A stretch of 64,000 nt of DNA from Promethearchaeota archaeon (GTDB taxonomy: Archaea; Asgardarchaeota; Lokiarchaeia; Sigyniarchaeales; SOKP01): assembly GCA_004524725.1 (NCBI GenBank), contig SDNW01000002.1, positions 4,792 through 68,791 of the forward strand, read 5' to 3'. The notes beneath the pieces were generated by a model, which was not told the DNA's origin, made no database searches, and saw only the letters and a program-made list of their open reading frames with translations. The stretch's first letter is position 1; every line of letters begins with the position of its first letter. Positions 16,043 to 63,604 of the stretch are shown one piece after another. The position numbers and the translations under genes are program-made.

Positions 16043-16059
16043 AAGGAGAATTTGTAAAT

Positions 16060-20031: not shown

Positions 20032-23000
20032 ACGGATAATTATAATTGGTCTTATTGTAATTGGTATCATTTCTACTGGGATTGGTTTAATTAATTTCAT
20101 TAACAATAACAATGTACTTGATTTTCATCAATTCTCAAGTGAAAAGAGTAATTTAAATAGTGCGGATGGCGAAATTGCTCCATTTATTGTTTACTTCAAT
20201 TCTTCATCGTATAATATATTTGCTGAAACTCGATTCATAGATTATGGAGGAATAATCAACAACCAAAGGAAATGGAATGGAATATTTAATGAGTTTTCAG
20301 GGTTTGCTGGGACATTTCCTCTTGAAAATATATCTTTCTATAAAGCTGAATTTCCTAATATCAACATTGAGAGAGATGAGATTTTGGAAGTACAAATGAA
20401 CTATGCTGCAATTCAAAGTCATGCTATTAATTCTACTTGGAGTTTAAACGGATATACTGGAGACATTAATTCTTCTATTGCTCTATTAGATAGTGGAGTA
20501 AATCCAGATCAGGACTTTCTCAACGGAAAAATTAGTGATTGGTATAATTTTATAAATAGCGATCCAATCTCTGATGATAATGGGCATGGCACCTTTTTAT
20601 CATCTGTTATTGCAGGAACAGGAACAAGATCCTATGATTCCATCGAACCATCAATTACAAATATATACGGTAATTATTCACATTTGGAGTTATTTAATGA
20701 ATTCATACCATCAAAAAATTATTCTTTGAAACTTATATCATTAAATCTTTCCAAAATTGATTCTTATTTTCAGTTATCTTCAATTTGTGACTTTAATATT
20801 GTTGAAATTGATAAAATGTGGTTTGAGCTCTACTTAAACTCCACATTACTTAATTCCACTTTACATCTTAATCCTTTTTTGAACCAAGAATTCCAATACA
20901 AAGTTTTAGACAAAGGAGTTTACGATCTCATTTTAAAATATCATAAAAAAAGCGAAGTAATTCCCAATTTTTCATTTAACGCAACCATATCATTTTTTCC
21001 GGAAACTTGTACTCCAAATTTTAATCATTTTACGGGGATTGCGAATGGATCCAAAATTGCTTCCTATAAAGTAGTGAATCAATCTGGTTTAGGCAATAGT
21101 TCAGATTTAATCAGTGCCTTGTCTAGAGTAATCCAAAATCGAGTATCAAAACATATTATGGCTGTTTGTTTAAGTATAGGAACATTAGGAGATGATTATA
21201 TCGCTTTAAATAAAGTAATTGATGAGGTAACAAACAATAATATATTAGTAGTTATTGCTGCTGGAAATTATGGAATTGAAGGTTCGGATCCTTTTAACAA
21301 GTTAGGTATAAATAAGAACGGAATAGTAGTCGGATCAACTAATGACATTGATCAAGTCAGTTCTTTTAGCAGTATGGGAAAAAATATCGGAGAGGGAATA
21401 ATTAAGCCAGATATTATGGCTCCAGGTGGCAGTTCTCTTTTAGGACACCGCTCTATAGTTAGTGCTGATCATTATTCTGATGAAACAACTTCACTTGAAG
21501 GAACCTCCATATCTGCAGCCATAGTCTCAGGGGCTATAAATATCTTGATTGAAGCGGGATGGGGTGACTGGGACACTTGGAATACCCAAGATCTTTCAAA
21601 ATGGTCAAAAATTATTAAAGCCATTCTATTGATGACTGCTTCTGAAACTAATCTTGATAGAGAAGACGATCCTAACACGATTATTGATGAAAGTGATTTT
21701 TCTCCCTCTTCCTTTAATGGTTTTACTGATTCATTGAAAGATAGTCATGAGGGATATGGGAGATTAAACATTCAAGCTGCTATTGATGCATTAACTAAAG
21801 AAATGGCGGTTTCTAATAGTGTTTCGGATCGCCTTATAAGTTCTTCACTGAATCCATTAGGAAATCATGTATTTGCCAGAAAGATTCAACTAGAAAGCAA
21901 CTCTCAATATCAATTTAATCTATCAAATGTAAATGAAGAAAGTGATTTTGATATGTTTCTTTTTTCGAACGAATCGGATCAATATGGTGAACCGATTTTA
22001 TTACAATCAACTCAAAAATGGTTTGGCAAATTCGATTCTTTTTATTTTACTCCAAAACAAAATGAAAGTGAATGCATATTAATTGTGAAAGCGAATGAAG
22101 GAGAAAGTGATTTTAGTGTAAATGTATCATTAGTAGAGAATCTTTATATTCCAGAATTAAAAATATCCGAGATTTCATATTTGGGAGGAGAAAAAAATGC
22201 AACTATTATCAGTCAGCAAGAATTTTTTGGCAATTCACCACTTAAGAACTATTCAATTGATAGATATTGGTTCTATATTGATTATTTTGATGCTGATATC
22301 ACCAATGTACCTCCTCAAGAAGTGGTAGTCCATATAATTGAAACTGCAAAGAATTATACGCTCTACCAACTAAATCAAGCCGATAATAATTATACAGATG
22401 GTGCTCAGTTTCGTGGCCAGCTCATAGAATTTCCTTCGCCAGGTGAATATCATTATTTCTTTAGTGCTAGTGATGGAACGAATAATGTACGATTTCCCGC
22501 TTCTAATAATTTCACAGTATCAATTGAATTTCCTACAGATAGTGAATCTTTCCCCTATACTCATAATTTCAGTGAGGGATTAGCTAATTGGTATTTCAAC
22601 GGAACAGGGTGGGACATCTTAACTCAGAGTAATTTAATCGATAACAGATCGCAAATCTATGACGATGACTGGTCTTCTGTTTATTTTGGACGAGATCATA
22701 TATTTCCTTCCAATTATACATATCAACCATATAATATAGAAGATTTCTATCCTAATGGAACTCTTTTTAGTCCATTGTTTAATTTGACAGGAATTATCAC
22801 TAACACAACTCATCCATTTGCTAAACTTGGTTTAAGAACAAGTATCAATATGGGAGACTCAATCTTACTGCAAATTAACCTCAATTGGACAGGATGGAGA
22901 ACGTTAAAGACTTATACTAATCAAGAAAGGGATTGGTTCATAGATATATTCAATTTAACGGAATATATTGGCAATTTTGTCCAGTTCAGATTTTTTACTA

Positions 23001-24805: not shown

Positions 24806-24830
24806 AATAAGAAAATATACAATTAAAACG

Positions 24831-27797
24831 ATGCGATTAGAAAATCTATTATATAGAATGCGGAGTAAAATTAGATTACGTTATATTAAGCATGCATGGC
24901 TGAATATTAAGAAAGATAAAGCTAAAACAATTTTTGGTATTGCGGGCATCATGACCTCTATCATATTATTAACTGCAATTGGAATGGTAAATGATACTTT
25001 ATCTTACAATTATATGGAGATTGTAACAAGCACCACGGGTAATTCCGATATATTGATATCAAAACGAATTCAAACTGATTTAAATTACAATCCGTTTTTT
25101 AATGAAAGCATTATCGAAACTAAACTCAGTAATATTGAAGGTGTTGAGGAATTATTTCCGCGAATGATGATGTTAGTAAGATCAGATTCAGAAAATATCG
25201 CATCCAATTACACGCTCCAGTTATATGGAATAGATTTTATTAAGGAGTCATCAAATGGTCATATAGGAAATTTAAATGTAGTTGATTCAGAAGGGAAAGA
25301 AACGGGAGAAGTATATTCTGACGAACCTAATATGGGAGAGTGTGTATTATTATGGAATAGTGCCCAATTATTAAATGTGACTCTTGGTGATTTTATACAA
25401 GTTGATTATCTAGGAGACTCTGTAGAGTTGGAAATTGTTGAAGTTTGTAGACAGGAGCTAAAATTTACGGAGCTTGAAAATACTTTAATTCTTGTGAATA
25501 TTGAACAAGCTCAGTCTATTTTGACTCGAGGAAGGAAAGAAATAAACTTTATTGCAGGTACCGTTGAAAATCCCGAATCTATTTATGATGTAAGGGATGT
25601 AGATCTCACATTGAGAAAACTAAGGACTATTGGAACGAGAATTCAAACCAAATTAGATCCTAATGAATTTACCGTATCAATGCCTAAATTAGAGGAGTTA
25701 AGTGCTCAGCAATTTTTATTAATCGCTATGACTATTATCTTTTGGTTTATTACTATTATCTCAATTTTAATTACGGGTATTTTAATAAATTCAATCCTAT
25801 CTACTTCTAGCGAAGAACGAATTAGAGAATATGGTGTTCTTCGGGTATTAGGAGGGAGGAAAACCTTTCCAGTAAAAATTGTAATTTTTGAAGGCTTTTT
25901 TATGGGATTAACAGGTTCAATATTGGGTATTATCATTGGATTAATTTTTACCCCTCCGATTGTGAATGCGTTATACATAATAACTGGTTCACCCTTTCAA
26001 AATTTTGATTATGTTATCCAACCTCAAACAATTATTCTTGCTTTTTCAATTGGATCAGCGACTTCATTGGTGATTTCGCTACTCCCTGCATTAAAAACTA
26101 GCAAGTTGAACATTATTAAATCCATTACTCCATTCCATTCAAAAGAAGAAGGTTGGGAAGTAAAGAAAGAAGGAAGTGTAAATGTGAGAAATTTTTTAAT
26201 CGGTTTGTCCATTGCTACCATCGGAATGGTAGTTTTTATATTATTACCCAATATTATAGTGACAGGAAATTTCATGAGCATTGCAGGTTTGTTCATTGGA
26301 TTATTGGGTGCTATTTTAATCGGACTTGTCTTTAGTTCAGTAGGAATTGTTCCGATAATTCAAAATGGGATACTTTATATTATCTCCCCTTTTATACGCA
26401 AATACTACAATATTATTAAAATCTCCCTTAAACGCAATCGTAGAAGGAATACCAGTACAATAGTGATGTTTGCTTTGAGTTTCTCATTCATTTTCTTTAT
26501 CACGAGCGTAACTGAAATGGAAACCCAGAATACGGCCTTGAATTTAAGATTTCAGTATGGTTCCGATTTAGTAATTATAAATCAAGGGCTTGATGCTAGT
26601 GTTGATGCCGTAACTTTAGAGATGGTAAATGATTTGACATCGTTAGTGGGGATTGATGATTTGGCAATGACGCTTTATAATATGTTCGACATCACCTCAA
26701 TATTATCAATCGCATATAGTTTCGGAGCAGAAGGCTCATTTGATGAAGAATCGATTAATGAAGCTTTCCTAGACATTTTTGAATTTTATTCGCAACAGAG
26801 ACAATCAAAATATCAAGTTATTGCTTCAGATATTGCTCGACATGATGAGTTGGAAATTGGGTTTGTAGGAATCGAAGATAACTATTATAATGTCATGGAC
26901 AGAGAGCTCTTTATATGGAGCAGCCCTTCTAGTGGATTCAATTATTCATTTAGTGAATTATTTAATCACAACGATACTTGCATAATTGCTACTTCTTTAG
27001 CAACAAGATTAGGAATACAGGATATTGGAGAACAAATTCTTCTTACCTTCTATGATCCAGAAAAAGAAGTAGATTTAGGAACTCCTATACTCCTTGAAGT
27101 GGTAGGAATATCTGGTGGCATGCCCGGATTCTTTAATTTCCGTAGTTCTGAGATGACTGCAGAAGGAGGAGGTATCATGGTTTCTTTGGATAATTATATG
27201 AATTTGATGAATGTAACAAATGCGGGAGAGGACAATATGATTATTGACAAAATTTATGTTAATCTTCTTGATGCTTCAGATGAAAATATTCAGGAAGTGA
27301 AGGAAGAAATCAGAACTCTATACTCAGATAAAGATTATTTTCTAGATGATGCTATTTCAAAAATAAATTTCATGAACGATATGTTTCAGAGACAAAGCAC
27401 AATGCTTGAAATTATTACTTGGTTTGCCATTGCCATTGCGATCTTTGGCTTAGTAAGTACGATGTATGCGATAATGCTTGAGCGAAAATTTGAGATCGGT
27501 ATTTTAAGATCCCTTGGAATGAAAACAAGAAATGTAAGAAATCTATTTTTAATCGAAAGTTTATTAATATTAATATCCTCAGGAACCATGGGGACCATTA
27601 TTGGCACTTATAGTGCTTATCTTATGGAAACAAATATAGGACTTTTTAACGAATTACCGATAGTATTTTCAATTCCAGTTGATGCGTTACTCCGAGTTTT
27701 TATTATATCTATAGTAATAGGATTTGTTGGAATGTATTTAATATTAATAAGATTAAGTAAACAAACCATTATGGATATTTTTAGACAGACTTTTTAA
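24831..27797 (+). CDS. Second ABC transporter permease with two FtsX domains (paralog of 13049..16042)
   Basis: 988 aa with the same architecture. FtsX blocks contain EERIREYGVLRVLGGRK and ERKFEIGILRSLGMKTRN. Confidence 0.85.
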   Translation: MRLENLLYRMRSKIRLRYIKHAWLNIKKDKAKTIFGIAGIMTSIILLTAIGMVNDTLSYNYMEIVTSTTGNSDILISKRIQTDLNYNPFFNESIIETKLSNIEGVEELFPRMMMLVRSDSENIASNYTLQLYGIDFIKESSNGHIGNLNVVDSEGKETGEVYSDEPNMGECVLLWNSAQLLNVTLGDFIQVDYLGDSVELEIVEVCRQELKFTELENTLILVNIEQAQSILTRGRKEINFIAGTVENPESIYDVRDVDLTLRKLRTIGTRIQTKLDPNEFTVSMPKLEELSAQQFLLIAMTIIFWFITIISILITGILINSILSTSSEERIREYGVLRVLGGRKTFPVKIVIFEGFFMGLTGSILGIIIGLIFTPPIVNALYIITGSPFQNFDYVIQPQTIILAFSIGSATSLVISLLPALKTSKLNIIKSITPFHSKEEGWEVKKEGSVNVRNFLIGLSIATIGMVVFILLPNIIVTGNFMSIAGLFIGLLGAILIGLVFSSVGIVPIIQNGILYIISPFIRKYYNIIKISLKRNRRRNTSTIVMFALSFSFIFFITSVTEMETQNTALNLRFQYGSDLVIINQGLDASVDAVTLEMVNDLTSLVGIDDLAMTLYNMFDITSILSIAYSFGAEGSFDEESINEAFLDIFEFYSQQRQSKYQVIASDIARHDELEIGFVGIEDNYYNVMDRELFIWSSPSSGFNYSFSELFNHNDTCIIATSLATRLGIQDIGEQILLTFYDPEKEVDLGTPILLEVVGISGGMPGFFNFRSSEMTAEGGGIMVSLDNYMNLMNVTNAGEDNMIIDKIYVNLLDASDENIQEVKEEIRTLYSDKDYFLDDAISKINFMNDMFQRQSTMLEIITWFAIAIAIFGLVSTMYAIMLERKFEIGILRSLGMKTRNVRNLFLIESLLILISSGTMGTIIGTYSAYLMETNIGLFNELPIVFSIPVDALLRVFIISIVIGFVGMYLILIRLSKQTIMDIFRQTF

Positions 27798-37284: not shown

Positions 37285-38088
37285 TTAATTCAAAATTGTA
37301 CAGATCTTTGACACAATTTTTTGCAAGTAAAATTCTGCTACCCCAAATTTGGTCCGAGCATGAAAAATTAATATGATAAAGTATAAATCATTTATATACT
37401 CAGATAAAATCAATTCATTATCCCGAGAAGTATAAAAAAGTTTTAAAATTGAATTATTACAGATTTTAACGCGAAAGTCAACTTGCCTTAGGAATTTCTT
37501 TAGCTCTATATCTCTTAGTGAAGAATAAATTACATTACCTCTATCTGTTAAAAGAATACATCCATGAATTTCATCATTCTGTTGTATTTCTTCAAAGTAT
37601 TCAATTAGGGCCTCTTCTTTTTTTAGATCAAAATCTTTACTTAGAGTATCGCGTATTAGATCTTCCACCATGAAGTTCAGGTTCTCATCGTAAATATATT
37701 CAATATCTGTTTTAACATTATTTTTTTTAATATAGGTTAAAAAAATCGTATGAATTTGCGCAATAATTTCTTCTAATAAAGCAAGGTTTTCAAAAGTAGC
37801 GCATAATATGCAATAAAAAAGGTTACCCTTTTCAAAAACTACGAGTTTAATCCCACCCCCCATTTCGACCGTTTTAATTTTATCTCCAATCAATTCCTTA
37901 GTAAATGACATAAGTGCTGTAAAATAGGACGATATAAGCTGTTCTTGTTCAATTGTATAGATTTGAGAAAAATTAAGTCCATAAATACAAATCCCCGCTC
38001 GATTGAAAATAAATAGATTATGAATTTTCACTCCACTAAAACCACGTTTTATTTTGAGTAATTGTGAAGATTTTTCGGGAATACTCAT
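37285..38088 (-). CDS. Tandem longin-domain protein; N-terminal domain resembles clathrin-adaptor sigma / SNARE-like longin fold
   Basis: 267 aa. LFIFNRAGICIYGLNF...LISSYFTALMSFTKEL...IKLVVFEKGNLFYCILCATFENLALLEEIIAQIHTIFLTYI parallels the AP sigma pattern (ILI.NR.GK..L.K.Y...F..F...YR.YA.LYF...V....N.LA.LE.IH.FVE.L). A second unit begins around ILLTDRGNVIYSS. Confidence 0.55.
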   Translation of the reverse strand: MSIPEKSSQLLKIKRGFSGVKIHNLFIFNRAGICIYGLNFSQIYTIEQEQLISSYFTALMSFTKELIGDKIKTVEMGGGIKLVVFEKGNLFYCILCATFENLALLEEIIAQIHTIFLTYIKKNNVKTDIEYIYDENLNFMVEDLIRDTLSKDFDLKKEEALIEYFEEIQQNDEIHGCILLTDRGNVIYSSLRDIELKKFLRQVDFRVKICNNSILKLFYTSRDNELILSEYINDLYFIILIFHARTKFGVAEFYLQKIVSKICTILN

Positions 38089-53312: not shown

Positions 53313-54335
53313 TTAATAATCTGCTAATGATGATATGTCTTGCTGAAGATTGCTTTTTGATATGAATTTTTCTATGTCAGAAAGATTATTTGGTAACCCT
53401 TCTCTTACTCCGATCCCCATAGATTCTAATGAAGACATCGCAGTTGAAATTTGCGTCATTTTCTTTAATGAATAACCATTTAACTTAGATAATAGAATCC
53501 CACTTAGGAATGCATCCCCTGCACCCGTCGTGTCTTTTACATCAACTTTATATATTCCACTTTTAATTACTTCTTCTCCATCAGATACTAGTGAACCTTG
53601 TGCTCCATCTGTGATAGACACTAACTTAGGGCCTAGATCGAGCATCTTTTTTAGAGCATAGTATCGTTCGGACTCTTGAGTTAGTTCTTCTGCCTCTTCT
53701 CTATTCATAGATACTACATCAGAATCAGCAATTAAAATTTTTGCCCATTTCGGGTTGTTCTTAAGTATTGACATGCTAGGAGCTGCGAATACTAAACCAC
53801 CATTATTCTTAGTGAGTGTTATTGCTTTTTCAATAGCTTTGCAACCATTTTCAGTAGTAAGCGAGCTCCATGCAAAAGCTTTAATATCACTAAAAAGTTC
53901 TTCTTTGATATGATCAGGAGTGAGTAAATTATTGGCACCTTTATAAGCTAAAATACTTCTATCCTTACCCCATTCGGTCTTAAGAATGGCAGAAAACGCC
54001 GTATTATCCTCTTCAGTTTGATATATATGCGATATATCTACATTTCTTTTTTTTAGGTCTTCTAAACATATTTGAGCAGAAAAGTCCTTTCCGATAACCC
54101 CAATATACGTTGATTTAATCCCTAACATCGCACAATCTGCTGCAATATTGGCACCGGATCCCCCTGGAAAGAATCGAATATCATTCACATTCAATTTTCG
54201 GCTGTATTCGATCGCAGTGTATTTCTTAACTACATCTTTATCAAATAGTTCAAATCGAAGAATATCTTGCACTTCAATTATGCAATCAAGAGTACAGCTT
54301 CCAATAGTAATTAATTCTGGTTTCAATCTTATCAC
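53313..54335 (-). CDS. PfkB-family carbohydrate/nucleoside kinase
   Basis: 340 aa. N-terminal GGSGANIA and C-terminal DTTGAGDAF motifs of the ribokinase/PfkB family. Confidence 0.85.
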   Translation of the reverse strand: MIRLKPELITIGSCTLDCIIEVQDILRFELFDKDVVKKYTAIEYSRKLNVNDIRFFPGGSGANIAADCAMLGIKSTYIGVIGKDFSAQICLEDLKKRNVDISHIYQTEEDNTAFSAILKTEWGKDRSILAYKGANNLLTPDHIKEELFSDIKAFAWSSLTTENGCKAIEKAITLTKNNGGLVFAAPSMSILKNNPKWAKILIADSDVVSMNREEAEELTQESERYYALKKMLDLGPKLVSITDGAQGSLVSDGEEVIKSGIYKVDVKDTTGAGDAFLSGILLSKLNGYSLKKMTQISTAMSSLESMGIGVREGLPNNLSDIEKFISKSNLQQDISSLADY

Positions 54336-54505
54336 GATTATTTAATATTAAGATTTATCAAATATGATAAAAATGGCAGAAATTCTTATATAATTTTGCT
54401 ATCTAAGGTATTAGGAAAAAGTGAAAGTATGAATTTTAGATCATAAACATCATTTATTTAAATTTAAACAACATAATTTATTCTAACCAAAAACATAGCG
54501 TGATA

Positions 54506-54994
54506 ATGATTAAAGATAAGTTTGAGCTGGTGGGTACGATGATCCCCGAGTTCGAATTACCAAATTCAAGGGGAGATAAAATCAATATCAAAGAATTCAA
54601 AAATAATAAAAATGTCATCATAGTGCTATTTAGAGATATACATTGACCATATTGTCGATGGCATGCGGCAGAATTGCGTAGGAATCTGGAAATGTTTGAA
54701 GAGTTGGATGGATATCTCTATCCAATATTAGCAGATAGCGAAGAAAATGCACAAAAAATGGAAAAAAAATATGCGCGAAATTATGCGATATTTTACGACC
54801 CTTCAAAAGAAGTACAAAAACTCTTAAATCAACAAGTAAAAATTTGGAAAGGCGGAAGAATGCCCGGATTATTGATTATTGATAAACAAGGAATAATACA
54901 GTACGCTTATTACAGTGATAGTATGAAAGATTTACCGAAAACTGAGGAGATATTGGAAGTATTAAAGAGAATAAATAGACAACCAAATGATTAA
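54506..54994 (+). CDS. Thioredoxin-fold redoxin (AhpC/TSA / Prx-like) with in-frame TGA at the first redox Cys position; candidate selenoprotein (U-P-Y-C)
   Basis: ATG 54506 opens a frame reading MIKDKFELVGTMIPEFELPNSRGDKINIKEFKNNKNVIIVLFRDIH-TGA(54644..54646)-PYCRWHAAELRRNLEMFEE... It runs in the same frame into track ORF 54674..54994. The TGA aligns with the first Cys of the family motif (F.G.WCPYCR..L..L). A pseudogene remains the alternative. Confidence 0.55.
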
Positions 54995-55075
54995 AAAGCG
55001 ATTTGGAATGGATAAAATGGAAAAAAAGAGGATATTTTATTCATAAAAGGTAGCCACACTTAACCAAATCAACCC

Positions 55076-55082
55076 TTTTTTT
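55076..55082 (+). terminator. Oligo-T tract (T7) downstream of the redoxin gene
   Basis: Read directly (aacccTTTTTTTaac), in the convergent intergenic region. Confidence 0.4.
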
Positions 55083-55154
55083 AACTTAAAAATAGATCTA
55101 TAATGAACTAATAAACTTTAATGAAATTCTATTAAAAAGAGATTTCTAAAAAAA

Positions 55155-55781
55155 TTAGTCGCGTGATTTTAACTTATTTAATTCTTCTTCGAGTTCTTTG
55201 ACCTTTCCATCGGGATCTACAGTAGGAAGAGCGCCTCCGATTTCAGCACCTATTTCAGCGTCAATTTCTCCTAATACTTCTTGAACTTGAGAGTCAGTTA
55301 CAGCAGAGTCCATTTGTATATCACTTATACCATCCGAAGTTATTTCTTGGGTGAGATCGAAGTCTTCCATATCAATTCCGATGTTATCCATGAGATCTGT
55401 AAGTTGTGGAATAGAAAGTTGACTCTTAAGAGCGCCTAAACTCGCCGCAATTCCATGCATAACATCCGCAACGTCTTTTACTGCAGTAGCTTGCTCCAGT
55501 TTAAAGACCATTCCTTCTAAATTCGTTCTAAAATGGTCTATCGCTCGTGCTTGCTTCTTTACTTGAAGATAATTGCGAGCGTGAAACGCAGAACCATCCA
55601 TATCACCGTTTTTTCGTAAATTTACTGCTTTATCACGAGCCAATTTTGCGGTCATTTCCATTTTCTTTGTTTGTCGCATCAATCGTTTGTTAAATACTTT
55701 TAATTTTACAGTAGCTGAACGAACAGTATCTTTCTTTTTACCCCCCGAAAGCCATTTACTCATATCCTTAAGAAAACCCAT
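55155..55781 (-). CDS. ESCRT-III subunit (Snf7 family; Vps2/24/46-CHMP1-3-like)
   Basis: 208 aa. Basic N-terminal half (helical hairpin). Acidic C-terminal half. Terminal amphipathic helix KELEEELNKLK resembles a MIM1 (L..(R)L..LK). N-terminal MGFLKDMSKWL amphipathic segment. Confidence 0.85.
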   Translation of the reverse strand: MGFLKDMSKWLSGGKKKDTVRSATVKLKVFNKRLMRQTKKMEMTAKLARDKAVNLRKNGDMDGSAFHARNYLQVKKQARAIDHFRTNLEGMVFKLEQATAVKDVADVMHGIAASLGALKSQLSIPQLTDLMDNIGIDMEDFDLTQEITSDGISDIQMDSAVTDSQVQEVLGEIDAEIGAEIGGALPTVDPDGKVKELEEELNKLKSRD

Positions 55782-55989
55782 ATTAAACCATCAAATTTAG
55801 TTGTTTTTATATATTATATAAAAGTTCGCAATTATATAATTTTTTGTAGACCAATTATTACCACGCTTTTGATAAAAGAAAATTTGATATAAGAAAATAT
55901 ATTAAATATTTAAACAAATACCGAACTAGATTACCTATAAATAGTAAGATTTGTATAAAATTAATAACTAGTTTTAAAGGTTATTTAGG
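55782..55989. promoter_or_regulatory. Divergent promoter region between ESCRT-III and vps4
   Basis: 208-nt AT-rich spacer with TATA-like elements (tttttatatattatataaaa near 55805-55825; tgtataaaatta at 55952-55963, about 30 nt upstream of the vps4 ATG). Not discriminating in such an AT-rich genome. Confidence 0.3.
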
Positions 55990-57207
55990 ATGTCAAGTGT
56001 CGATAGTAAACTTTATCAATATGCAGTCGAAGAAGCTCAAGCTGCCGTAAAGCTAGATGAGAGTGGGAGATACAGACAAGCAATTAACAAATATCAGCGA
56101 GCTGCTGAGATTTTGATACAATTTGTAAAATATAACAAAAATCCTATTATGATTAAACGTTGCCAAGATCAGATTGAGCAATATGTAAATCGAGCACAAA
56201 CTCTTAAGGCTCACTTGAGTGGTCCTCGGAGAAGGGGTTCCCCAGCTTCAATTAGTCCACACGAATCGAAAGGAGAGGCGTCCTCAGATACAGAGAGCAT
56301 CTATTCCAAAGAAGAACAAGAGTTAATAGACTCCATTTCTGGCACCATTTTGACTGAATCTCCAAACATAAAATGGATAGATATTGCGGGATTAGAGGAT
56401 TGCAAACAATCCTTACGAGAAGCGATAGTGTTACCTATAATGAAGCCAGAGCTCTTTACGGGAGCAAGAAAACCTTGGTCAGGAATCCTTTTGTTTGGCC
56501 CCCCAGGATGTGGTAAAACATTACTAGCAAAAGCAGCCGCTACTGAATGCAAAGCTACATTTTTTAGCGTTTCCTCTGCTGATATGTTAAGTAAATGGTT
56601 AGGCGAAAGTGAAAAGCTAATAAGCTCATTGTTTAAAGTAGCGCGTATAAAAGCTCCGAGTTTAATTTTTATGGATGAGATTGACTCAGTTGCTACAAGG
56701 AGGGGTGAGGGTCACGAAGGAGGTGGTGAGAGAAGAGTGAAAACCCAACTACTCAGTGAAATCCAAGGAATGAAATCAACATATGAAAAACCGTTATTAG
56801 TGCTTGGAGCTACTAATCGACCGTGGGATATTGACACAGCGATGCTCAGTCGTTTTGAGAAAAAAGTGTATGTTCCGCTTCCGGATATGCCCGCAAGGGC
56901 AGGTATCTTTAAAATCCATACTGCGGGGATTAATTCCGATTTAAATGAAGAAGATTATATTGAATTAGCTGTCCGATCAGAAGGCTATTCTGGGAGAGAT
57001 ATCTCGAATGTGTGTCGAGAAGTAATCATGATTCCTATTCGAGAATTAGATATGGGAGGCTTACTTGAAGATTCAGATAAGGAAGTTGTAGTAAGGGATA
57101 TTACAATAAAGGATTTTATTAAAACTCTTAAAAAGGTTAAACCGATGACAACCGGTTCTGAATTGAATAAATATGAAGATTGGGCAGAAGAATATGGAGA
57201 GTATTAA
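55990..57207 (+). CDS. vps4: Vps4-like AAA+ ATPase (MIT domain + AAA + Vps4 C-terminal helix)
   Basis: 405 aa. N-terminal MIT-like three-helix region (AVEEAQAAVKLDESGRYRQAINKYQRAAEILIQFVKY). Walker A GPPGCGKT. Walker B LIFMDEIDS. SRFEKKVYVPLPD. C-terminal YEDWAEEYG. Confidence 0.9.
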   Translation: MSSVDSKLYQYAVEEAQAAVKLDESGRYRQAINKYQRAAEILIQFVKYNKNPIMIKRCQDQIEQYVNRAQTLKAHLSGPRRRGSPASISPHESKGEASSDTESIYSKEEQELIDSISGTILTESPNIKWIDIAGLEDCKQSLREAIVLPIMKPELFTGARKPWSGILLFGPPGCGKTLLAKAAATECKATFFSVSSADMLSKWLGESEKLISSLFKVARIKAPSLIFMDEIDSVATRRGEGHEGGGERRVKTQLLSEIQGMKSTYEKPLLVLGATNRPWDIDTAMLSRFEKKVYVPLPDMPARAGIFKIHTAGINSDLNEEDYIELAVRSEGYSGRDISNVCREVIMIPIRELDMGGLLEDSDKEVVVRDITIKDFIKTLKKVKPMTTGSELNKYEDWAEEYGEY

Positions 57208-57229
57208 TATCATTTATTGATGAAAAATT

Positions 57230-58132
57230 ATGGAACGTCAGCGAGAAAAACCTAAAGAAGTTACTAAAGAAAAAAAAGAGCAACCTGAGAAAGAATTAGA
57301 GGATTTAAGGAAAGAATTAGCGCGATTAAAGGAGCTAAAAAAGCAAAAAGAGCTAGAACGAAAAAAAGAGGCAGAATCGCGGGTTGAGGGGGAAGAAGAG
57401 ATAGAAAAGGGCTATTCAAACTCTAAAAGTCAAGAAATTGAAGCAAGATTAGATAAAATCGAGGATTTTCTAACTTCAAAATTGGGTGAAGTAGATTTAA
57501 AAGCATACGAACAAAATGCCGAAGAAGTAGAACAGGAACTTATATTAATTGAACGAGAGATTGTCGGGGAGAAAGGTGTTATATCCAAAGAAGTTTCTAC
57601 TTATGAACTTTTAGTAAATGATTACCCGTGGTTAGAAGAAAAACGATATATTTTTATGTATACCTTACCGAATAAAAAAACGGATTTAAAAGATTTTGAA
57701 TCGTGGAAAAATGAATGGTCCAAAATTCTATTTGATTATGCCCGCTATGCAATTTTGCATATTTTATATTTAAGACAATTAGAATCTGAAAAACCATTTT
57801 CTAAATTTGAAGATCGAACCGAAGCATTGAAAGAAATTGCAGAAGAATTGGTTGAGAGAGAGCAAGCAGAATGGTTATCAAAAAGTAAAGAGAAATTACG
57901 GGTATATTGGAAATCACTTGACAATTGGGCTCAAGAAATATATGAATGGGTAATAGAAATCTCTCCATTGGAGCCTATTTTAATCTTTGAAATAAGAGAA
58001 TCAAATAAAGAATTTAGTAATTTGCCTAAAGATGATATTATAAAGATATTCAAATTGCTAGAAAAGGATAAGAAAGGGGAGATTATTAAAGCCGATAATG
58101 GGCAAATCTCATTTAAAATAAGAGTAGAATAA
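57230..58132 (+). CDS. vps25: ESCRT-II Vps25-like protein (two winged helices) with a roughly 125-aa charged coiled-coil N-terminal extension
   Basis: Residues about 130-300 align by eye to human VPS25 as I recall it. YPWLEEKRYIFMYTLPNKKTDLKDFESWKNEWSKILFDYARY matches FEWPWQYRFPPFFTLQPNVDTRQKQLAAWCSLVLSFCRLH. AEWLSKSKEKLRVYWKSLDNWAQEIYEWV matches LEWLDKSKSSFLIMWRRPEEWGKLIYQWV. The C-terminal KGEIIKADNGQISFKI matches KAEIITVSDGRGVKFF. Sits 22 nt downstream of vps4. Confidence 0.75.
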   Translation: MERQREKPKEVTKEKKEQPEKELEDLRKELARLKELKKQKELERKKEAESRVEGEEEIEKGYSNSKSQEIEARLDKIEDFLTSKLGEVDLKAYEQNAEEVEQELILIEREIVGEKGVISKEVSTYELLVNDYPWLEEKRYIFMYTLPNKKTDLKDFESWKNEWSKILFDYARYAILHILYLRQLESEKPFSKFEDRTEALKEIAEELVEREQAEWLSKSKEKLRVYWKSLDNWAQEIYEWVIEISPLEPILIFEIRESNKEFSNLPKDDIIKIFKLLEKDKKGEIIKADNGQISFKIRVE

Positions 58133-58134
58133 TT

Positions 58135-58851
58135 CTAAATAGAAGGAAAAAACCATTGTTTTCCTTTTAGCAATGAATCGCGAAATTTCGCGACCCCTGT
58201 TTCCTCTAGGGACTTTAGGGTTTCCAAGGCACGATCTTGAGACCAATTCAACCCGACACATATATCCTCAAGAGATATAAAACCTTTATCTTGAGCTAAA
58301 CCTATCACCTTTACTTGATCACTGGTATATTCCACTGGAAAAAACCGTACCATGATAATACCTGAACCTAATTCTTTAAGATCATCAATTACGTGTGATT
58401 TTTTTAATTTTTTTAGAGCTTTATATAAATCTTTCATATCTACAATGCCCTTTAAAATCCCAGTATTCACCAGATCAAACACTTCTGTTAAAGGAAGTAA
58501 ACCGACGCCTATCTCTTCTTTTTGCATTAAAACTCGTTGATAAGCCAACATTCCGAGTTTTTCATGATCGATTTTAGAAAATTTGATGAGGACATCATTT
58601 TCAGTAATTTGTTCCGTTACAATTTTAGAGGAAGGTATATTATATATTTTCTGTAATTCTTTCACATCTTCTTTTAATTCAGGAGTTAGAGCTAATATAA
58701 CTCCATGTCTTTTTGCCAATTCCCTCAGTCTCTCTTTTGTGAAATTTTCAGTCGCAGCTTTAGCTTGAATATCCTTAATCTTTAACTCTGCTGCTTTCTT
58801 TTTCATTGCTTCTCTTAGATCAATCTCATCTTCTATTTTACGAATTCCCAT
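58135..58851 (-). CDS. vps22: ESCRT-II Vps22/Vps36-like EAP30-domain protein
   Basis: 238 aa. The C-terminal two-thirds align by eye to human SNF8. DMKDLYKALKKLKK...LGSGIIMVRFFPVEYTSDQVKVIGLAQDKGFISLEDICVGLNWSQDRALETLKSLEETGVAKF...KQWFFPSI matches ...DDLIRAIKKLKALGTGFGIIPV...VPAELNMDHTVVLQLAEKNGYVTVSEIKASLKWETERARQVLEHLLKEGLAWLD...YWLPAL. Basic N-terminal helix. Confidence 0.8.
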   Translation of the reverse strand: MGIRKIEDEIDLREAMKKKAAELKIKDIQAKAATENFTKERLRELAKRHGVILALTPELKEDVKELQKIYNIPSSKIVTEQITENDVLIKFSKIDHEKLGMLAYQRVLMQKEEIGVGLLPLTEVFDLVNTGILKGIVDMKDLYKALKKLKKSHVIDDLKELGSGIIMVRFFPVEYTSDQVKVIGLAQDKGFISLEDICVGLNWSQDRALETLKSLEETGVAKFRDSLLKGKQWFFPSI

Positions 58852-58930
58852 ATTTACTTAGCACTATTTTTTAATACCTTTAGTGATTAATAATAATAAG
58901 ACTTCTTATTTCTTTTTATTTTAATCGAAA

Positions 58931-59512
58931 ATGAATACCTTAAAAAACTTTAGACCAGTTAATGATTACGAAAAAGAACTAATTATAGATTCTATTGGAA
59001 AAATATCCCCCAATTCAAAAGCTATCTTTGAAGATGGTCTATACGACTACTACTTAATTTTTAAACATAATAAACAGCTAAAGAATAGATTACAGATTTA
59101 TTTAGTAACCCACGATAAAGCAAAAATCGAGAGTTTAAATAACTTACATGCTAAAATTCACTCCATAGGATTATATTTTGGTTTTATAAATAAAGGAATT
59201 TTTTATTTAAGCTTGGAAGGGGCGGAATTCTTCTACAAAAAGGGATTTCTTTCTGAAATAAAATATGTTTACTTAAATAAAACAGGAGAAAAGTCAGTTC
59301 TTTATGGAAATAATATATTGAAAAGTATGATAACCAAAACCTCAACTAAGTTACTAAAGGATGATTTTTTATTGATATTTAATGAGTATAATGAAATCTT
59401 AGCTATAGGATTGTCTAAAACGGAAAGAAATATAATAGATAAACTTAAACCTAAAGATATTGTCGCTATCAATTTAAGGGATAAGGGATATTATTTGAGA
59501 ACTCCACAATAG
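58931..59512 (+). CDS. NIP7-like pre-PUA + PUA domain protein (ribosome biogenesis factor homolog, UPF0113)
   Basis: 193 aa. IGLYFGFINKGIFYLSLEGAEFF...KYVYLNKTGEKSVLYGNNILKSMI...DFLLIFNEYNEILAIGLSK...DIVAINLRDKGYYLR parallels eukaryotic Nip7 (LGTCFGKFTK...F.L.V.AL..LA....KVW.K...E..FLYGN.VLK..L......). Confidence 0.7.
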   Translation: MNTLKNFRPVNDYEKELIIDSIGKISPNSKAIFEDGLYDYYLIFKHNKQLKNRLQIYLVTHDKAKIESLNNLHAKIHSIGLYFGFINKGIFYLSLEGAEFFYKKGFLSEIKYVYLNKTGEKSVLYGNNILKSMITKTSTKLLKDDFLLIFNEYNEILAIGLSKTERNIIDKLKPKDIVAINLRDKGYYLRTPQ

Positions 59513-59666: not shown

Positions 59667-60968
59667 CTAATCTTCATCTAGCAACTTAAGATCTTCATTT
59701 GAAATCTGTTTCATCTCATCCTTAAGTTCATCATGGAGTCTAATAAACTCAGAAGTAAATGATAGAGGAGATTTGATTAATTCTGCTTTTATGGACTCAT
59801 AATCTTCCTCATCAGTAAAAATTTTTCGAAGTTTATTCTCTAATTCCAATGGGATCCTTAAATATCTTCCAGTTAAGAGAAGAGGTTGTTTTTTGCTCTC
59901 AATAATTTTGTAAGGAAAATTTGAAAAATATTTTTCAATCAATTCAAAAGCATTCTCATATTGAGAAGGATCAGTAATAGATTTTTTTAATTCACGCTCG
60001 AATTTTTTCTCAAAATCAGCAGTAAACTTAATTACAGAATCTCTTAACAATTTTGATGATTTTGATGACACCAATCCCACAGTAATACTTTTAGATTCTT
60101 TTAAAATTAATATACCCTCTTTTAAATTGATATCTAACAAACCTCCGATATTCATCACCTCTTCACTCATAAGTTGGACCGCATTTAGAAATCCTGTAAA
60201 TATTGTTTCATTCAATACAGATTCTGACCAATCGTGATAATACAGTGGCACGCCGTCCTTGTTTTTGACAACTATTCGGTATATAGTATAAGGTAAAATA
60301 TATAATAATTTAGGTTCTCGAATAACCACTAATGAAATTATCAAGGTACCTATTGCTATAGAAATATCACAAATAAGAATAAAAATTGGTTCAAATATGT
60401 ATAGAAGATAAAATAAAAAACCAAAAGGAAAAATTGTTAAAATACCAAGAAAGAAGATTAAAGCTTCCTTTTTAATTAAAAAGGGAGCATTTATCCAAGT
60501 TCGAACACCCCAATAAAATAAGTATAACATCGCAATACCCGTCAATACCATACCAAGTATGCCAAATAACCCTCCCCAAGCCACTCTTAAGTAACCTGAT
60601 TGAAATTCTATATAAACCGCACCAGGCAGGAATCCAGAATAAATTAATAAAGAGGATAAACCAGCTACTATAATAAGACCGTAAGAATATATATTTTCTT
60701 TCATTGTATAATTTAATCCAATTATTATGAACAATGTGGCAGGAATAATTAGAAGTCCACTAAGCAAACCTAAAATTTTATTTAAAAACAGAAAAGAAAG
60801 TCCATCAGTAAGAATAAAAACCCAAAAAAGAATAAATCCCAGCCGGATGAAAAACAATGATTTAATTTTCTTGGCTTTTGGACTATAATAAGTTATGATG
60901 GTAAGAATAATTCCAAAAATAGCTGTGATAAAATCTATAATTACTTCAATATTCCAATTTAATGCCAT
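59667..60968 (-). CDS. Polytopic membrane protein (about 8 TM) with cytoplasmic C-terminal longin/roadblock-like domain
   Basis: 433 aa. The N-terminal roughly 220 aa are hydrophobic helices. They are followed by YRIVVKNKDGVPLYYHDW...IFTGFLNAVQLMSEEVM...INLKEGILILKESKSITVGLVSSKSSKLLRDSVIKFTADFEKKF, which has the same beta-beta-alpha-beta-beta-alpha pattern as 37285..38088. Confidence 0.5.
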   Translation of the reverse strand: MALNWNIEVIIDFITAIFGIILTIITYYSPKAKKIKSLFFIRLGFILFWVFILTDGLSFLFLNKILGLLSGLLIIPATLFIIIGLNYTMKENIYSYGLIIVAGLSSLLIYSGFLPGAVYIEFQSGYLRVAWGGLFGILGMVLTGIAMLYLFYWGVRTWINAPFLIKKEALIFFLGILTIFPFGFLFYLLYIFEPIFILICDISIAIGTLIISLVVIREPKLLYILPYTIYRIVVKNKDGVPLYYHDWSESVLNETIFTGFLNAVQLMSEEVMNIGGLLDINLKEGILILKESKSITVGLVSSKSSKLLRDSVIKFTADFEKKFERELKKSITDPSQYENAFELIEKYFSNFPYKIIESKKQPLLLTGRYLRIPLELENKLRKIFTDEEDYESIKAELIKSPLSFTSEFIRLHDELKDEMKQISNEDLKLLDED

Positions 60969-60990: not shown

Positions 60991-61719
60991 TTACTCTTTT
61001 TTTAATTTTGATGATTTTAAGATTTTGGACAAGAATTTCTTAACATTAGGATTAATAATTAATTGTTTCTCAGATTCTGGATTTGCTATAAGGATTTCAT
61101 AATCCATCAAATTATTAATCCGATAATAGACAATTTCCCGCTTTTCATTTACTTCTTTGTAAATTTCAGATTTGATTAGCAATTTTTTTTTAATCATTAG
61201 TTTTAAAATTTGAAAAATAATTGGATCTCTCATTAGAAAATAAAGTTTACCTAAATTCTCTTCCATTTTAAAAGGGAGAAATATTGAGTAATTGCCCACT
61301 TTCACTTTTTTAACGTAGTTAAACTTGATTAGCATTCCTAAATGCCATATAAGCTTTCCGGAACTAATACTTTTCCCTGAAATACTCTTTTTCCTAAGAT
61401 AAGAGAAATGAACTCCTGGGTTCGACAATATAAACTTATAAATTTTTTTTCGGAACCGATTTAAAAGGACGGTATCCTTTGAAAATTTAGAACCTTCAAT
61501 TAAGACTTTTTTATCTATTAAATAATGGATTATAAATAGGAGCCCTTTCCTTGGGATTTTTAATTCTTTCTTAGCAACATTATAGAGAGTTTCTATATTT
61601 AATACAATATTTTTCTCCATTAGGTTTTCTGCTATTTCTATAACCTTCCTTACAGTGGGGTGATCTAGTCCAATTGTTTTTCTTATTATCTCAGTCTTCA
61701 TCTTAGAATTTAAAACCAC
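60991..61719 (-). CDS. Multi-winged-helix protein (predicted wHTH transcriptional regulator, COG3398-like)
   Basis: 242 aa. The central unit KIYKFILSNPGVHFSYLRKK...SSGKLIWHLGMLIKFNYVKKVKVGNYSIFLP has a typical wHTH pattern. Further WH-like units lie N- and C-terminal to it. Confidence 0.5.
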   Translation of the reverse strand: MVLNSKMKTEIIRKTIGLDHPTVRKVIEIAENLMEKNIVLNIETLYNVAKKELKIPRKGLLFIIHYLIDKKVLIEGSKFSKDTVLLNRFRKKIYKFILSNPGVHFSYLRKKSISGKSISSGKLIWHLGMLIKFNYVKKVKVGNYSIFLPFKMEENLGKLYFLMRDPIIFQILKLMIKKKLLIKSEIYKEVNEKREIVYYRINNLMDYEILIANPESEKQLIINPNVKKFLSKILKSSKLKKE

Positions 61720-61958: not shown

Positions 61959-62864
61959 CTAATCCAACTTTTGAATGACACATAAATAAAATCCTATTGT
62001 ATCTTGTAGATGGGGATAAAAACGTTGGGAAAATCTTAGATCATCCCTTAATTTTAATCCGAAAACTTTATTTAATCCATTAGCTCCGTAACCTTTAGAA
62101 ATTTTTGCTATCGAAAAATCTTTTAATTCATTTAAGACTTCATTAACAACTAATTCATTTTCTTCGGGAGCAATCGAACAAGTACTATATAAGAGCTGTC
62201 CCGAGGGTTTTAAGGAAAGCAAACCAGATTTTAATAATTGCTTTTGAATTATACTCAATTTTTTTAGATCATTTATACTTCTACTCTTTCTTCTAGTAGG
62301 ATCTTCGCGAATCAGTCCTTCCCCTGTACATGGAGCATCTAATAATATTTTATCAGCTTTGATGTTGTATTGATTCAATTTTATTGCGTCGAAATTTAAA
62401 ACTATTGAATTTGTTATGCCCAATCTACGAATATTCATTATTAGAGCAGGAATCCTTTTAGGATTCTTTTCAATTAAGATTAAGTTTCCTTGATCTTCCA
62501 TAATTTGTGCTAATTGAGTTGCTTTACTTCCTGGAGCAGCACACATGTCGATAACAAGGTCTCCCTTTTGAGGGTTTAAAATGGATACTGGCAACATTGA
62601 GGCAAGATTTTGCACATAGTAATATCCCAAAAGAAACTCATGAGTTGCACCAAGACTATAGGGTGATTTTAATATCTCAAATGCGTAAGATAACCATTTA
62701 TTAGCCTTTAATTTAAAACCCTTATTCTCAAGTCTGCTTTTCAAAATATTTGGTTCTATTTTTAAAGTATTTACACGAATATATGGTTTCAAAGGTTTTT
62801 CATTTGCTATTAAAAGTTGCTTAGTTTGCTCCAAACCTAAGAATTGAAAATATCTTTGTACCAT
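61959..62864 (-). CDS. NOL1/NOP2/Sun-family RNA (cytosine-C5)-methyltransferase
   Basis: 301 aa. SAM motif DMCAAPGSKAT. Catalytic Cys motifs LLDAPCTGEG and LLYSTCS. The upstream in-frame stretch (..DDIQKLAEKYGYLPY) looks like conserved N-terminal sequence but lacks a canonical start. Confidence 0.85.
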   Translation of the reverse strand: MVQRYFQFLGLEQTKQLLIANEKPLKPYIRVNTLKIEPNILKSRLENKGFKLKANKWLSYAFEILKSPYSLGATHEFLLGYYYVQNLASMLPVSILNPQKGDLVIDMCAAPGSKATQLAQIMEDQGNLILIEKNPKRIPALIMNIRRLGITNSIVLNFDAIKLNQYNIKADKILLDAPCTGEGLIREDPTRRKSRSINDLKKLSIIQKQLLKSGLLSLKPSGQLLYSTCSIAPEENELVVNEVLNELKDFSIAKISKGYGANGLNKVFGLKLRDDLRFSQRFYPHLQDTIGFYLCVIQKLD

Positions 62865-63007: not shown

Positions 63008-63604
63008 TTGATAGAAGTAGAAGTTAAAATTCAGATTTCTGATCCCTTTTTTTTACGTAATAAATTTAAACAACTAGGGGGAATCTATAAATTATCACTA
63101 ATCCATGAAGATATATATTACAATATGCCTACAGGACTAAGAGATTTCGCTAAAACAGATGAGGCTTTGAGAATTCGAAGTTCCACGGAATATAAAAATG
63201 GAGAAAAAAACAAAACTGAAAAAAAAGTCTTTTACCTCACCTATAAAGGAAAAAAACTTGATCAAATTTCTAAGTCACGCCATGAAATTGAATTAAAACT
63301 TGAGAATGCTAATAGTATGAAAGAAATCCTTGCTAATTTAGGATTTCGAGAGATATTAACCGTGAAAAAAGAACGAGAATTGTATGAGTTCGAATATAAG
63401 GATAATAAAATTGAAGCTCTGCTTGATTATTTACCAGCTCTCAATAGTTACTTTTTGGAGGTAGAGTTAATTGCTCAATCTAGTGAAGAACTTTCTGAGA
63501 AACGGGACCAATTATTCCGATTTCTTTTGGAATTTGGATATACTCAAAAAGATTCAATTACAGAATCATATTTAGAATTAATTATTAAAAAATCTAAAAA
63601 ATAA
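63008..63604 (+). CDS. CYTH-domain triphosphate tunnel metalloenzyme (class IV adenylyl cyclase / thiamine triphosphatase-like)
   Basis: 198 aa. N-terminal ExExK motif (IEVEVKIQ). Later HEIELKL and EVELIA beta-strand acidic pattern. TTG start. Confidence 0.8.
   Translation: MIEVEVKIQISDPFFLRNKFKQLGGIYKLSLIHEDIYYNMPTGLRDFAKTDEALRIRSSTEYKNGEKNKTEKKVFYLTYKGKKLDQISKSRHEIELKLENANSMKEILANLGFREILTVKKERELYEFEYKDNKIEALLDYLPALNSYFLEVELIAQSSEELSEKRDQLFRFLLEFGYTQKDSITESYLELIIKKSKK

Follow-up and report, generated by a model that had tools for sequence, protein, structure and literature searches.

Described ESCRT systems and the Lokiarchaeial locus

[quoted passage not shown] We analyzed a locus of this kind in a 64-kb stretch of DNA, which is called the window throughout this text. 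As a system, the Lokiarchaeial ESCRT module is already known: descriptions of it go back to 2015, and two studies survey it in detail (PMC9192718, PMC10936438). We consider it highly probable that the locus in the window belongs to a Lokiarchaeial (Asgard) genome and forms its core ESCRT module, consisting of an A-type ESCRT-III, Vps4, Vps25 and Vps22, and as such it marks the window as Asgard. The four genes are as follows.

55155..55781, minus strand: ESCRT-IIIA, Snf7 family, Vps2/24/46-like (CHMP1/2/3-like), 208 residues
55990..57207, plus strand: Vps4, AAA+ ATPase, 405 residues
57230-58132, plus strand: Vps25, whole open reading frame, 300 residues
58135..58851, minus strand: Vps22/SNF8-like EAP30 protein, ESCRT-II subunit, 238 residues

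Cataloguing of this architecture, together with its partial biochemical and structural characterisation, dates from 2015 onwards, so a further instance leaves the general picture unchanged. The locus adds some detail: in the window and its close relatives (the window clade) an A-type ESCRT-III is linked to ESCRT-II and the B-type partner of Vps25 is unlinked, the back-to-back promoters predicted between ESCRT-IIIA and vps4 are conserved, and a conserved helical extension of Vps25 offers a concrete object for tests of interaction.

The cultured strains Promethearchaeum syntrophicum MK-D1 and Lokiarchaeum ossiferum (L064 and L061 in the set of loci described below) share with the window the succession vps4-vps25, a convergent vps22 and the same protein families, and in these strains, as in the window, ESCRT-IIIB and the ubiquitin/ESCRT-I genes are unlinked. 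They differ in that the ESCRT-IIIA gene divergently adjoins vps4 in the window clade, whereas the 10 kb around the modules of MK-D1, L. ossiferum and their relatives are devoid of Snf7 genes. The window Vps25 also has 300 residues, including a helical extension of ~120 residues, as against 194 residues in MK-D1; its winged-helix core is ~40% identical to MK-D1 Vps25. The complete ubiquitin-ESCRT clusters of Hel-, Heimdall- and Odinarchaeia (PMC9192718) hold orthologous ESCRT-IIIA, Vps4, Vps25 and Vps22 genes in the same order and orientation (L074), but the Hel_GB_B cluster adds ESCRT-IIIB, Vps28, UEV-Vps23 and ubiquitin, none of which occurs in the locus or in the 64 kb around it.

The TACK CdvABC system resembles the window in having a Snf7-family gene beside an MIT-containing Vps4/CdvC ATPase. 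Unlike CdvABC, the window holds Vps25 and EAP30 proteins, has no CdvA match, and stays below the equivalog cut-offs for CdvB and CdvC. The eukaryotic ESCRT machinery has in common with the window the Pfam families, the tandem winged-helix fold of Vps25, the MIT-AAA-Vps4_C arrangement of Vps4 and, in ESCRT-III, an autoinhibitory-type charge asymmetry with a C-terminal MIT-interacting helix (predicted here). It differs in having a Vps22 and Vps36 pair, whereas the window encodes one Vps22/36-type protein with no paralog in the window. The window Vps25 has an additional N-terminal helical region, and the window ESCRT-IIIA has a conserved glutamate where the consensus of the MIT-interacting motif MIM1 has an arginine. 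Asgard archaea have two types of ESCRT-III as compared to eight or more in eukaryotes (PMC11804906).

Identity of the four genes

An earlier reading of the sequence, the preliminary description, had placed four adjacent open reading frames (ORFs) at this locus, and the ORF listing bore out all of their coordinates. The 208-nucleotide spacer between the divergent ESCRT-III and vps4 genes and the 22-nucleotide gap between vps4 and vps25, which lie on the same strand, proved exact on measuring; vps25 and vps22 are convergent, with stop codons 2 nucleotides apart. The four ORFs are genuine genes; the same neighbours are kept in dozens of independent Asgard genomes. By exact-sequence matching, the proteins were found to be GenBank TFG18316-TFG18319 (EU531_00680-00695), encoded on a 70-kb contig of a Lokiarchaeota/Promethearchaeota metagenome-assembled genome (MAG), so the Asgard lineage previously deduced from the locus was right. 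In the deposited annotation Vps4 is an 'ATP-binding protein' and the other three are each a 'hypothetical protein'; EU531_00680-00695 can now be named correctly.

Pfam matches were judged by the curated cut-offs of the families (in bits: Snf7 27.3, MIT 30, AAA 21.2, Vps4_C 21.3, ESCRT-II 27, EAP30 26.8). All five families whose presence the preliminary description had proposed to check (Snf7, MIT, Vps4_C, EAP30 and ESCRT-II/Vps25) scored above these values, including EAP30 and Vps25, the two on which it had let the whole reading stand or fall.

ESCRT-III matched Snf7 at 67.1 bits (E=2e-18) over residues 24-188 of 208, in line with its earlier naming as a Snf7-family protein. The basic N-half and acidic C-half ascribed to it were equally evident, with a net charge of +15 (isoelectric point 10.5) in the former and -18 (4.05) in the latter. 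When all PDB sequences were searched, the best matches were CHMP2A (2.4e-9) and CHMP1B (2e-8); Asgard ESCRT-IIIB entries matched more weakly (7e-5 and 4e-3), and Snf7/CHMP4 entries were absent from the hits. The two Snf7 paralogs of Hel_GB_B served as a control. The paralog far from vps4 matched Asgard ESCRT-IIIB (4e-17 for 9fn1; 5e-12) and yeast Snf7 (1e-7), and the one beside vps4, orthologous to the window protein (249 bits), matched CHMP1B (1.4e-12), CHMP1A and CHMP2A. On the strength of the PDB ranking and this two-paralog control, we class the window ESCRT-III as A-type (ESCRT-IIIA, CHMP1/2-like), which agrees with the Vps2/24/46-like typing implied earlier.

The consensus of MIM1 is (D/E)xxLxxRLxxL(K/R). 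A MIM1-like terminal helix had been proposed for ESCRT-III.

55167..55205, minus strand: MIM1-like C-terminal helix of ESCRT-IIIA, residues 193-205 (K-V-K-E-L-E-E-E-L-N-K-L-K), predicted docking site of the Vps4 MIT domain

This helix was found to fit four of the six consensus positions, namely the three leucines and the terminal lysine (L197, L201, L204 and K205). Across 60 orthologs these four residues show a conservation of 92-100%, and the helix as a whole hardly varies.

Vps4, a meiotic-clade AAA+ ATPase, was found by Pfam to consist of an N-terminal MIT domain, as previously proposed, a single AAA cassette and a Vps4_C domain, with an additional match to AAA_lid_3.

56017-56208, plus strand: MIT domain of Vps4, 46.4 bits, 4e-12
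56485-56880, plus strand: AAA domain of Vps4, 137.9 bits, 3.5e-40
57079-57198, plus strand: Vps4_C domain of Vps4, 31.5 bits, 1.7e-7

The protein aligned with yeast Vps4 (5uie) in a single stretch over residues 12-361 (326 bits); Cdc48/VAT entries outrank yeast Vps4 only because the scores of their two AAA domains are summed. Across 77 Asgard orthologs the Walker A (GPPGCGKT), Walker B (DEID) and pore loop 1 (SKWLGESEK) sequences are invariant or nearly so, and so is Arg288, without exception, in the second region of homology (56845-56856, residues 286-289, L-S-R-F).

Vps25 falls into two parts.

57593..58132, plus strand: tandem winged-helix core of Vps25, ESCRT-II subunit, residues 122-300
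57230..57592, plus strand: N-terminal extension of Vps25, residues 1-121, absent from eukaryotic VPS25

The protein matched the Pfam family ESCRT-II (PF05871) at 43.3 bits (5e-11). Residues 105-298 matched PDB entry 9uyv ('ESCRT-II complex subunit', 194 residues) at 2.6e-46, residues 132-293 the crystal structure of Odinarchaeota Vps25 (7pb9) at 3.6e-25, and residues 132-292 human VPS25 at 4e-9. The last alignment takes in almost the whole human protein and only 54% of the archaeal one, which corrects in detail the by-eye alignment of the preliminary description. An AlphaFold2 (AF2) model built with 83 homologs had a predicted local distance difference test score (pLDDT) of >90 over residues 122-300. 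Foldseek ranked Odinarchaeota Vps25 (7pb9) first for this model (E=7e-12, template modelling (TM) score 0.85, root-mean-square deviation 2.4 A), followed by yeast and human VPS25 with TM scores of 0.58-0.65.

Vps22 matched EAP30 (PF04157) at 43.1 bits (5e-11) over residues 38-221. It matched human SNF8 at 9e-8, and yeast Vps22 at 5e-4 as compared to 0.055 for VPS36, which places it nearer Vps22. The earlier statement that the protein aligns with SNF8/VPS22 over most of its length is corrected in detail: a direct phmmer alignment to human SNF8 spans residues 97-222, as against 38-221 for the profile. We assign the 238-residue protein to the Vps22/SNF8-type EAP30 proteins, as a subunit of ESCRT-II.

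The N-terminal extension of Vps25

Only the C-terminal ~170 residues of the window Vps25 are the counterpart of eukaryotic VPS25; a conserved extension, predicted to be helical, takes up the first ~120. AF2 placed helices at residues 17-53, 64-85 and 90-117, with variable hinges and a pLDDT of 82-90 at residues 21-40. Conservation of the extension is segmental. Among homologs, identity to the window protein is 0.80-0.93 at residues 1-10, 21-40 and 71-90, as against 0.31-0.32 in the indel-prone linker at residues 41-70, and this pattern is still seen at 30-45% identity. The extension is kept at its full length of ~120 residues in hundreds of Lokiarchaeial homologs, and the long Vps25 occurs in most Lokiarchaeia, though not in MK-D1. 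A preprint on MK-D1 termed the extension 'unstructured'. We rejected this label for the window protein, in which AF2 gave three helices and conservation is segmental; it is not transferable because MK-D1 Vps25, with only 194 residues, is without most of the extension. The extension had no Pfam match at E<=1. According to Makarova et al. (2024), Vps25 proteins of Asgard archaea have additional subdomains at the N-terminus, some of which resemble a steadiness box (PMC10936438). Such a similarity was rejected for the window extension, since hhalign against Vps23-core and Vps28 alignments gave a probability of at most 1%.

The first helix of the extension shares a ten-residue motif, [DE]L..EL.[KR]LK, with the MIM1-like tail of ESCRT-IIIA.

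57302-57331, plus strand: motif copy in Vps25 (residues 25-34)
55167-55196, minus strand: motif copy in ESCRT-IIIA (residues 196-205)

The copy in Vps25 reads D25-L-R-K-E-L-A-R-L-K34. Among the 19,451 residues of the window ORFs, the pattern occurs in only these two proteins, where shuffled sequences lead one to expect 0.01 occurrences. Most close homologs (96 of 119) retain the Vps25 copy, and none of 44 diverged cluster representatives does. Because the motif was noticed post hoc, and because heptad-periodic helices rich in Lys, Glu and Leu match it more readily than the shuffles imply, we use it for framing a hypothesis and nothing further. The helical extension might be a functional module whose helix 1 serves as a ligand of the Vps4 MIT domain, so that ESCRT-II would recruit or regulate Vps4 directly, an idea to which we give little credence. 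If true, it would be a shortcut not known in eukaryotes; we note it alongside the predicted co-transcription of vps25 with vps4. Alternatively, helix 1 could form a leucine zipper that pairs two Vps25 arms.

Conservation of the locus among Asgard genomes

The preliminary description had suggested a comparison of synteny with other Asgard genomes. We scanned one genome per GTDB species with the Vps25 alignment, which gave 80 loci, and then searched the ORFs of these loci locally with profiles. The linkage turned out to be widely conserved. vps25 directly follows vps4 in 76 of the 80 loci (median gap 20 nucleotides), a convergent vps22 adjoins vps25 in 63 (median gap 5 nucleotides), and a divergent ESCRT-IIIA gene lies upstream of vps4 in 52 (median spacer 209 nucleotides). 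The window clade keeps the gene order PfkB / ESCRT-IIIA / Vps4 / Vps25 / Vps22 / Nip7-like PUA / RsmB-F methyltransferase / CYTH. A sensitive hidden Markov model and Pfam detected no Snf7 gene within 10 kb of vps4-vps25-vps22 in MK-D1, L. ossiferum and their relatives, which ruled out an ESCRT-III gene beside vps4 in loci of this type.

All of the 80 loci came from Asgard MAGs or isolates except a few contigs labelled Bathyarchaeota. Modules of the Lokiarchaeial type, vps4-vps25-vps22, were seen under the names Bathyarchaeota or 'miscellaneous Crenarchaeota group' (loci L067 and L086, and protein P0054, which is 72% identical to the window Vps25). These cases are probably errors of binning or labelling and not ESCRT-II outside Asgard. 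The earlier claim that ESCRT-II is confined to Asgard archaea stood for EAP30 and Vps25 proteins recognisable by sequence; it does not extend to structure, since Makarova et al. (2024) described structurally ESCRT-I/II-like proteins in other archaea (PMC10936438).

Components encoded outside the locus

The preliminary description listed several components as missing near the module, and none of them was found anywhere in the window. Searching with the four proteins by phmmer yielded no second ESCRT-III, AAA-Vps4, Vps25 or EAP30 paralog in the 64 kb. Pfam, run on essentially every ORF of the window, found no ubiquitin, E1/E2, UEV, Vps23, Vps28 or second Snf7 domain, and Helarchaeote ESCRT-IIIB, Vps28, UEV-Vps23 and ubiquitin as queries matched nothing there. 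The genes for Vps28, UEV-Vps23 and ubiquitin directly adjoin vps22 in the loci of Hel-, Borr- and Sifarchaeia. Hatano et al. (2022) reported that the ubiquitin and ESCRT genes of Lokiarchaeota lie in two separate genomic regions (PMC9192718); the absence of ESCRT-I and ubiquitin genes near the Lokiarchaeial modules agrees with that report and is normal for Lokiarchaeia.

With a query rebuilt from PDB 9fn1, we found 345 Lokiarchaeial homologs of ESCRT-IIIB, of ~216 residues. On a related complete chromosome (CP070805.1), one of these ESCRT-IIIB homologs (UCD00761.1) is encoded at ~1.52 Mb, alone among housekeeping genes, and an equivalent ESCRT module at ~0.05 Mb, that is, ~1.47 Mb away. The evidence for ESCRT-IIIB refers to the Lokiarchaeial class and to this related chromosome; the MAG of the window is represented by the 64-kb window.

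Proposed mechanism and alternative explanations

In the mechanism that we propose for the module, a Vps22 homodimer would join Vps25 in an ESCRT-II-like complex, and Vps25 would recruit an ESCRT-IIIB encoded elsewhere in the genome. ESCRT-IIIB would polymerise on flat membrane and recruit ESCRT-IIIA of the window type, which would bend or tubulate the membrane. The MIT domain of Vps4 would then dock on the MIM1-like tail of ESCRT-IIIA, and the pore loops would thread the subunit, by which the polymer would be remodelled and recycled. Yeast two-hybrid assays indicated contacts of Vps25 with ESCRT-IIIB, of ESCRT-IIIA with ESCRT-IIIB and of Vps4 with ESCRT-III in other Asgard lineages, and Vps22 homodimers in Loki (PMC9192718). 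With Heimdallarchaeote proteins, ESCRT-IIIB recruits ESCRT-IIIA, which tubulates membranes (PMC11804906). Since the reported partner of Vps25 is ESCRT-IIIB, and the paralog in the window is the late-acting A-type, the Vps25-ESCRT-III contact envisaged in the preliminary description concerns the unlinked ESCRT-IIIB.

Several points weigh against this reading of the locus. The mechanistic steps beyond gene identity are drawn from homology and published Asgard work. In the window ESCRT-IIIA a glutamate (E200) replaces the MIM1 consensus arginine, as it does in 57 of 60 orthologs. Ile/Val at residue 194 likewise takes the place of the consensus Asp/Glu, the first acidic position. By its residues, therefore, the tail is accurately called MIM1-like and is not a canonical MIM1. 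In Vps4, the residue before Arg288 is serine in 50 of the 77 Asgard orthologs (the window protein included) and arginine in 27. Yeast Vps4 has paired arginine fingers, which we take to be R288/R289; on this assumption the window clade would have a single finger, and because a serine precedes Arg288 its Vps4 hexamer interface may differ. Lastly, no ESCRT-IIIB, ESCRT-I or ubiquitin genes were found within 10 kb on either side in ~55 Lokiarchaeial loci. The window locus alone is not a complete pathway, because these genes are absent from the window and from the corresponding neighbourhoods.

This missing linkage, as opposed to the position of ESCRT-I and ubiquitin genes beside vps22 in Hel-, Borr- and Sifarchaeia, speaks for another explanation, in which the module is a self-contained system, independent of ubiquitin and ESCRT-I, in which ESCRT-II is recruited otherwise, for example via the N-terminal extension of Vps25. 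Also in favour of it, the extension has some segments as conserved as the winged-helix core and is predicted to be helical. We nevertheless think this explanation unlikely. Hatano et al. described separate ubiquitin and ESCRT regions in Lokiarchaeota, as well as interactions of Loki Vps28 and steadiness-box proteins with Vps22 (PMC9192718), and missing linkage is for that reason not the same as absence.

It is very improbable that the window holds only a Cdv-like ESCRT-III/Vps4 division pair, as in TACK archaea, and that the two winged-helix proteins are DNA-binding regulators that resemble ESCRT-II. Winged-helix domains are common among archaeal transcription factors, NCBIfam gave a CdvC match of 271 bits and a weak CdvB match, and FtsZ-independent division by ESCRT-III and Vps4 is an established function in Sulfolobales (PMC10936438). 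Both winged-helix proteins, however, passed the cut-offs that Pfam sets for the specific families ESCRT-II and EAP30, which rejects a Cdv-only reading at the level of family membership. In addition, the matches of Vps25 to Asgard Vps25 crystal structures lay between 1e-25 and 1e-46 and that to human VPS25 at 4e-9, and its tandem winged-helix fold had a TM score of 0.85. The NCBIfam equivalog cut-offs were far from reached (23.8 against 370 bits for CdvB, 270.7 against 650 bits for CdvC), and no window ORF had a Pfam match to CdvA or another Cdv-specific family.

Eukaryotic contamination, or recent transfer from a eukaryote, is scarcely credible: the nearest matches of the module proteins outside Asgard are indeed eukaryotic ESCRT subunits, but synteny across the 80-locus Asgard set, two cultured strains included, and a G+C content of ~0.29-0.37, inside the window-wide 0.27-0.37, reject it. 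The genes have no introns and little space between them, their predicted promoters are of the archaeal TATA type, and their neighbours are archaeal housekeeping genes.

Predicted promoters

The spacer between ESCRT-IIIA and vps4 in the Lokiarchaeial ESCRT module was analyzed by aligning 57 non-identical spacers, and the conserved blocks were read as promoters by the archaeal BRE (TFB-recognition element)/TATA consensus.

55832..55855, minus strand: predicted ESCRT-IIIA promoter block, with a ATTGGTCT box, an A-rich BRE-like ACAAAA and a TATA box AATTATATAA
55922..55943, plus strand: predicted vps4-vps25 promoter block, with a CGAACTAGATTAC box, N and a TATA box TATAAATA
55976-55981, plus strand: ribosome-binding-like motif AAAGGT, 9-14 nucleotides ahead of the vps4 ATG

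At most positions the ESCRT-IIIA block is kept in at least 80% of the sequences, including loci whose Vps25 is ~52-53% identical. We infer that the spacer holds two independent back-to-back promoters of the TATA type, one per side, and not one shared element, because the two blocks differ in sequence. The short or overlapping junction between vps4 and vps25 suggests that these two genes form an operon. Scanning 54300-59000 with Rfam at E<=1 gave no match.

Neighbouring genes and other observations in the window

On the vps22 side of the module lie the following genes.

58931-59512, plus strand: Nip7-like PUA protein (UPF0113, E=3e-13)
59667-60968, minus strand: 433-residue protein, predicted to be a seven-transmembrane longin-type protein, no Pfam domain, of a family found only in Lokiarchaeia (416 homologs)
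60991-61719, minus strand: 242-residue winged helix-turn-helix protein, cassette partner of the 433-residue protein
61959-62864, minus strand: RsmB/F (NOL1/NOP2/Sun-type) RNA methyltransferase
63008-63604, plus strand: CYTH protein

The UPF0113 match accords with the NIP7-like PUA protein named earlier as a flank. Synteny of the Nip7-like, RsmB/F and CYTH genes with the ESCRT module extends over the whole window clade and not to MK-D1-type genomes; because the latter are without such linkage, the shared order is probably a matter of inheritance, not of function. The other flank named earlier, a membrane-anchored longin-like protein, was likewise recovered. In the AF2 model of the 433-residue protein (pLDDT 75), a bundle of seven membrane helices precedes a beta-beta-alpha-beta-beta-beta-alpha-alpha domain, predicted to be cytoplasmic, which Foldseek paired with the longin folds of AP-1 sigma (TM 0.67), Sec22b (0.61) and AP-2 sigma (0.59), none at E<=0.001. 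The cassette of this protein and its 242-residue partner occurs in 16 of the 80 loci, usually between nip7 and rsmB; in some loci it occurs in duplicate (L008, L027) or in another place (L034). A comparison with three relatives had pointed to an insertion unique to the window lineage, which was overturned by the 80-locus sample, where the cassette is recurrent and variable. Since it is variably present and sometimes duplicated or displaced, it is not a component of the ESCRT module.

On the other side of the module, a peroxiredoxin/redoxin-like gene (AhpC-TSA, Redoxin) at 54500-54994 on the plus strand is interrupted by an in-frame TGA (54644-54646) that falls precisely on its redox motif, DIH-U-PYC. 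This TGA is conserved, together with its two flanks, in every orthologous locus that has the gene, which GenBank-style gene calling cuts into two ORFs. Right after its stop codon, at ~55000-55070, lies an element of ~70 nucleotides with nested stems, whose sequence is conserved where the rest of the untranslated region is not. This element resembles a selenocysteine insertion sequence (SECIS); it had no Rfam match, and single-sequence folding was weak (z = -1.55). The gene is a candidate selenoprotein gene with a SECIS-like element.

A 267-residue ORF at 37285-38088 on the minus strand weakly matched Sybindin (a TRAPP-type longin) in its initial ~70 residues, with E = 1.2e-3 and a score short of the Pfam cut-off, and may encode another trafficking-like protein of the eukaryotic-signature kind. 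Elsewhere in the window, an ABC ATPase gene (11819-12997) precedes a run of four very large genes at 13049-27797 on the plus strand, encoding proteins of 997, 1330, 1627 and 988 residues. Two of these have FtsX-type permease domains, one a TRAP-beta/DUF11-like domain and one a subtilase S8 domain, and the run has the look of a large set of genes connected with the envelope or with export.

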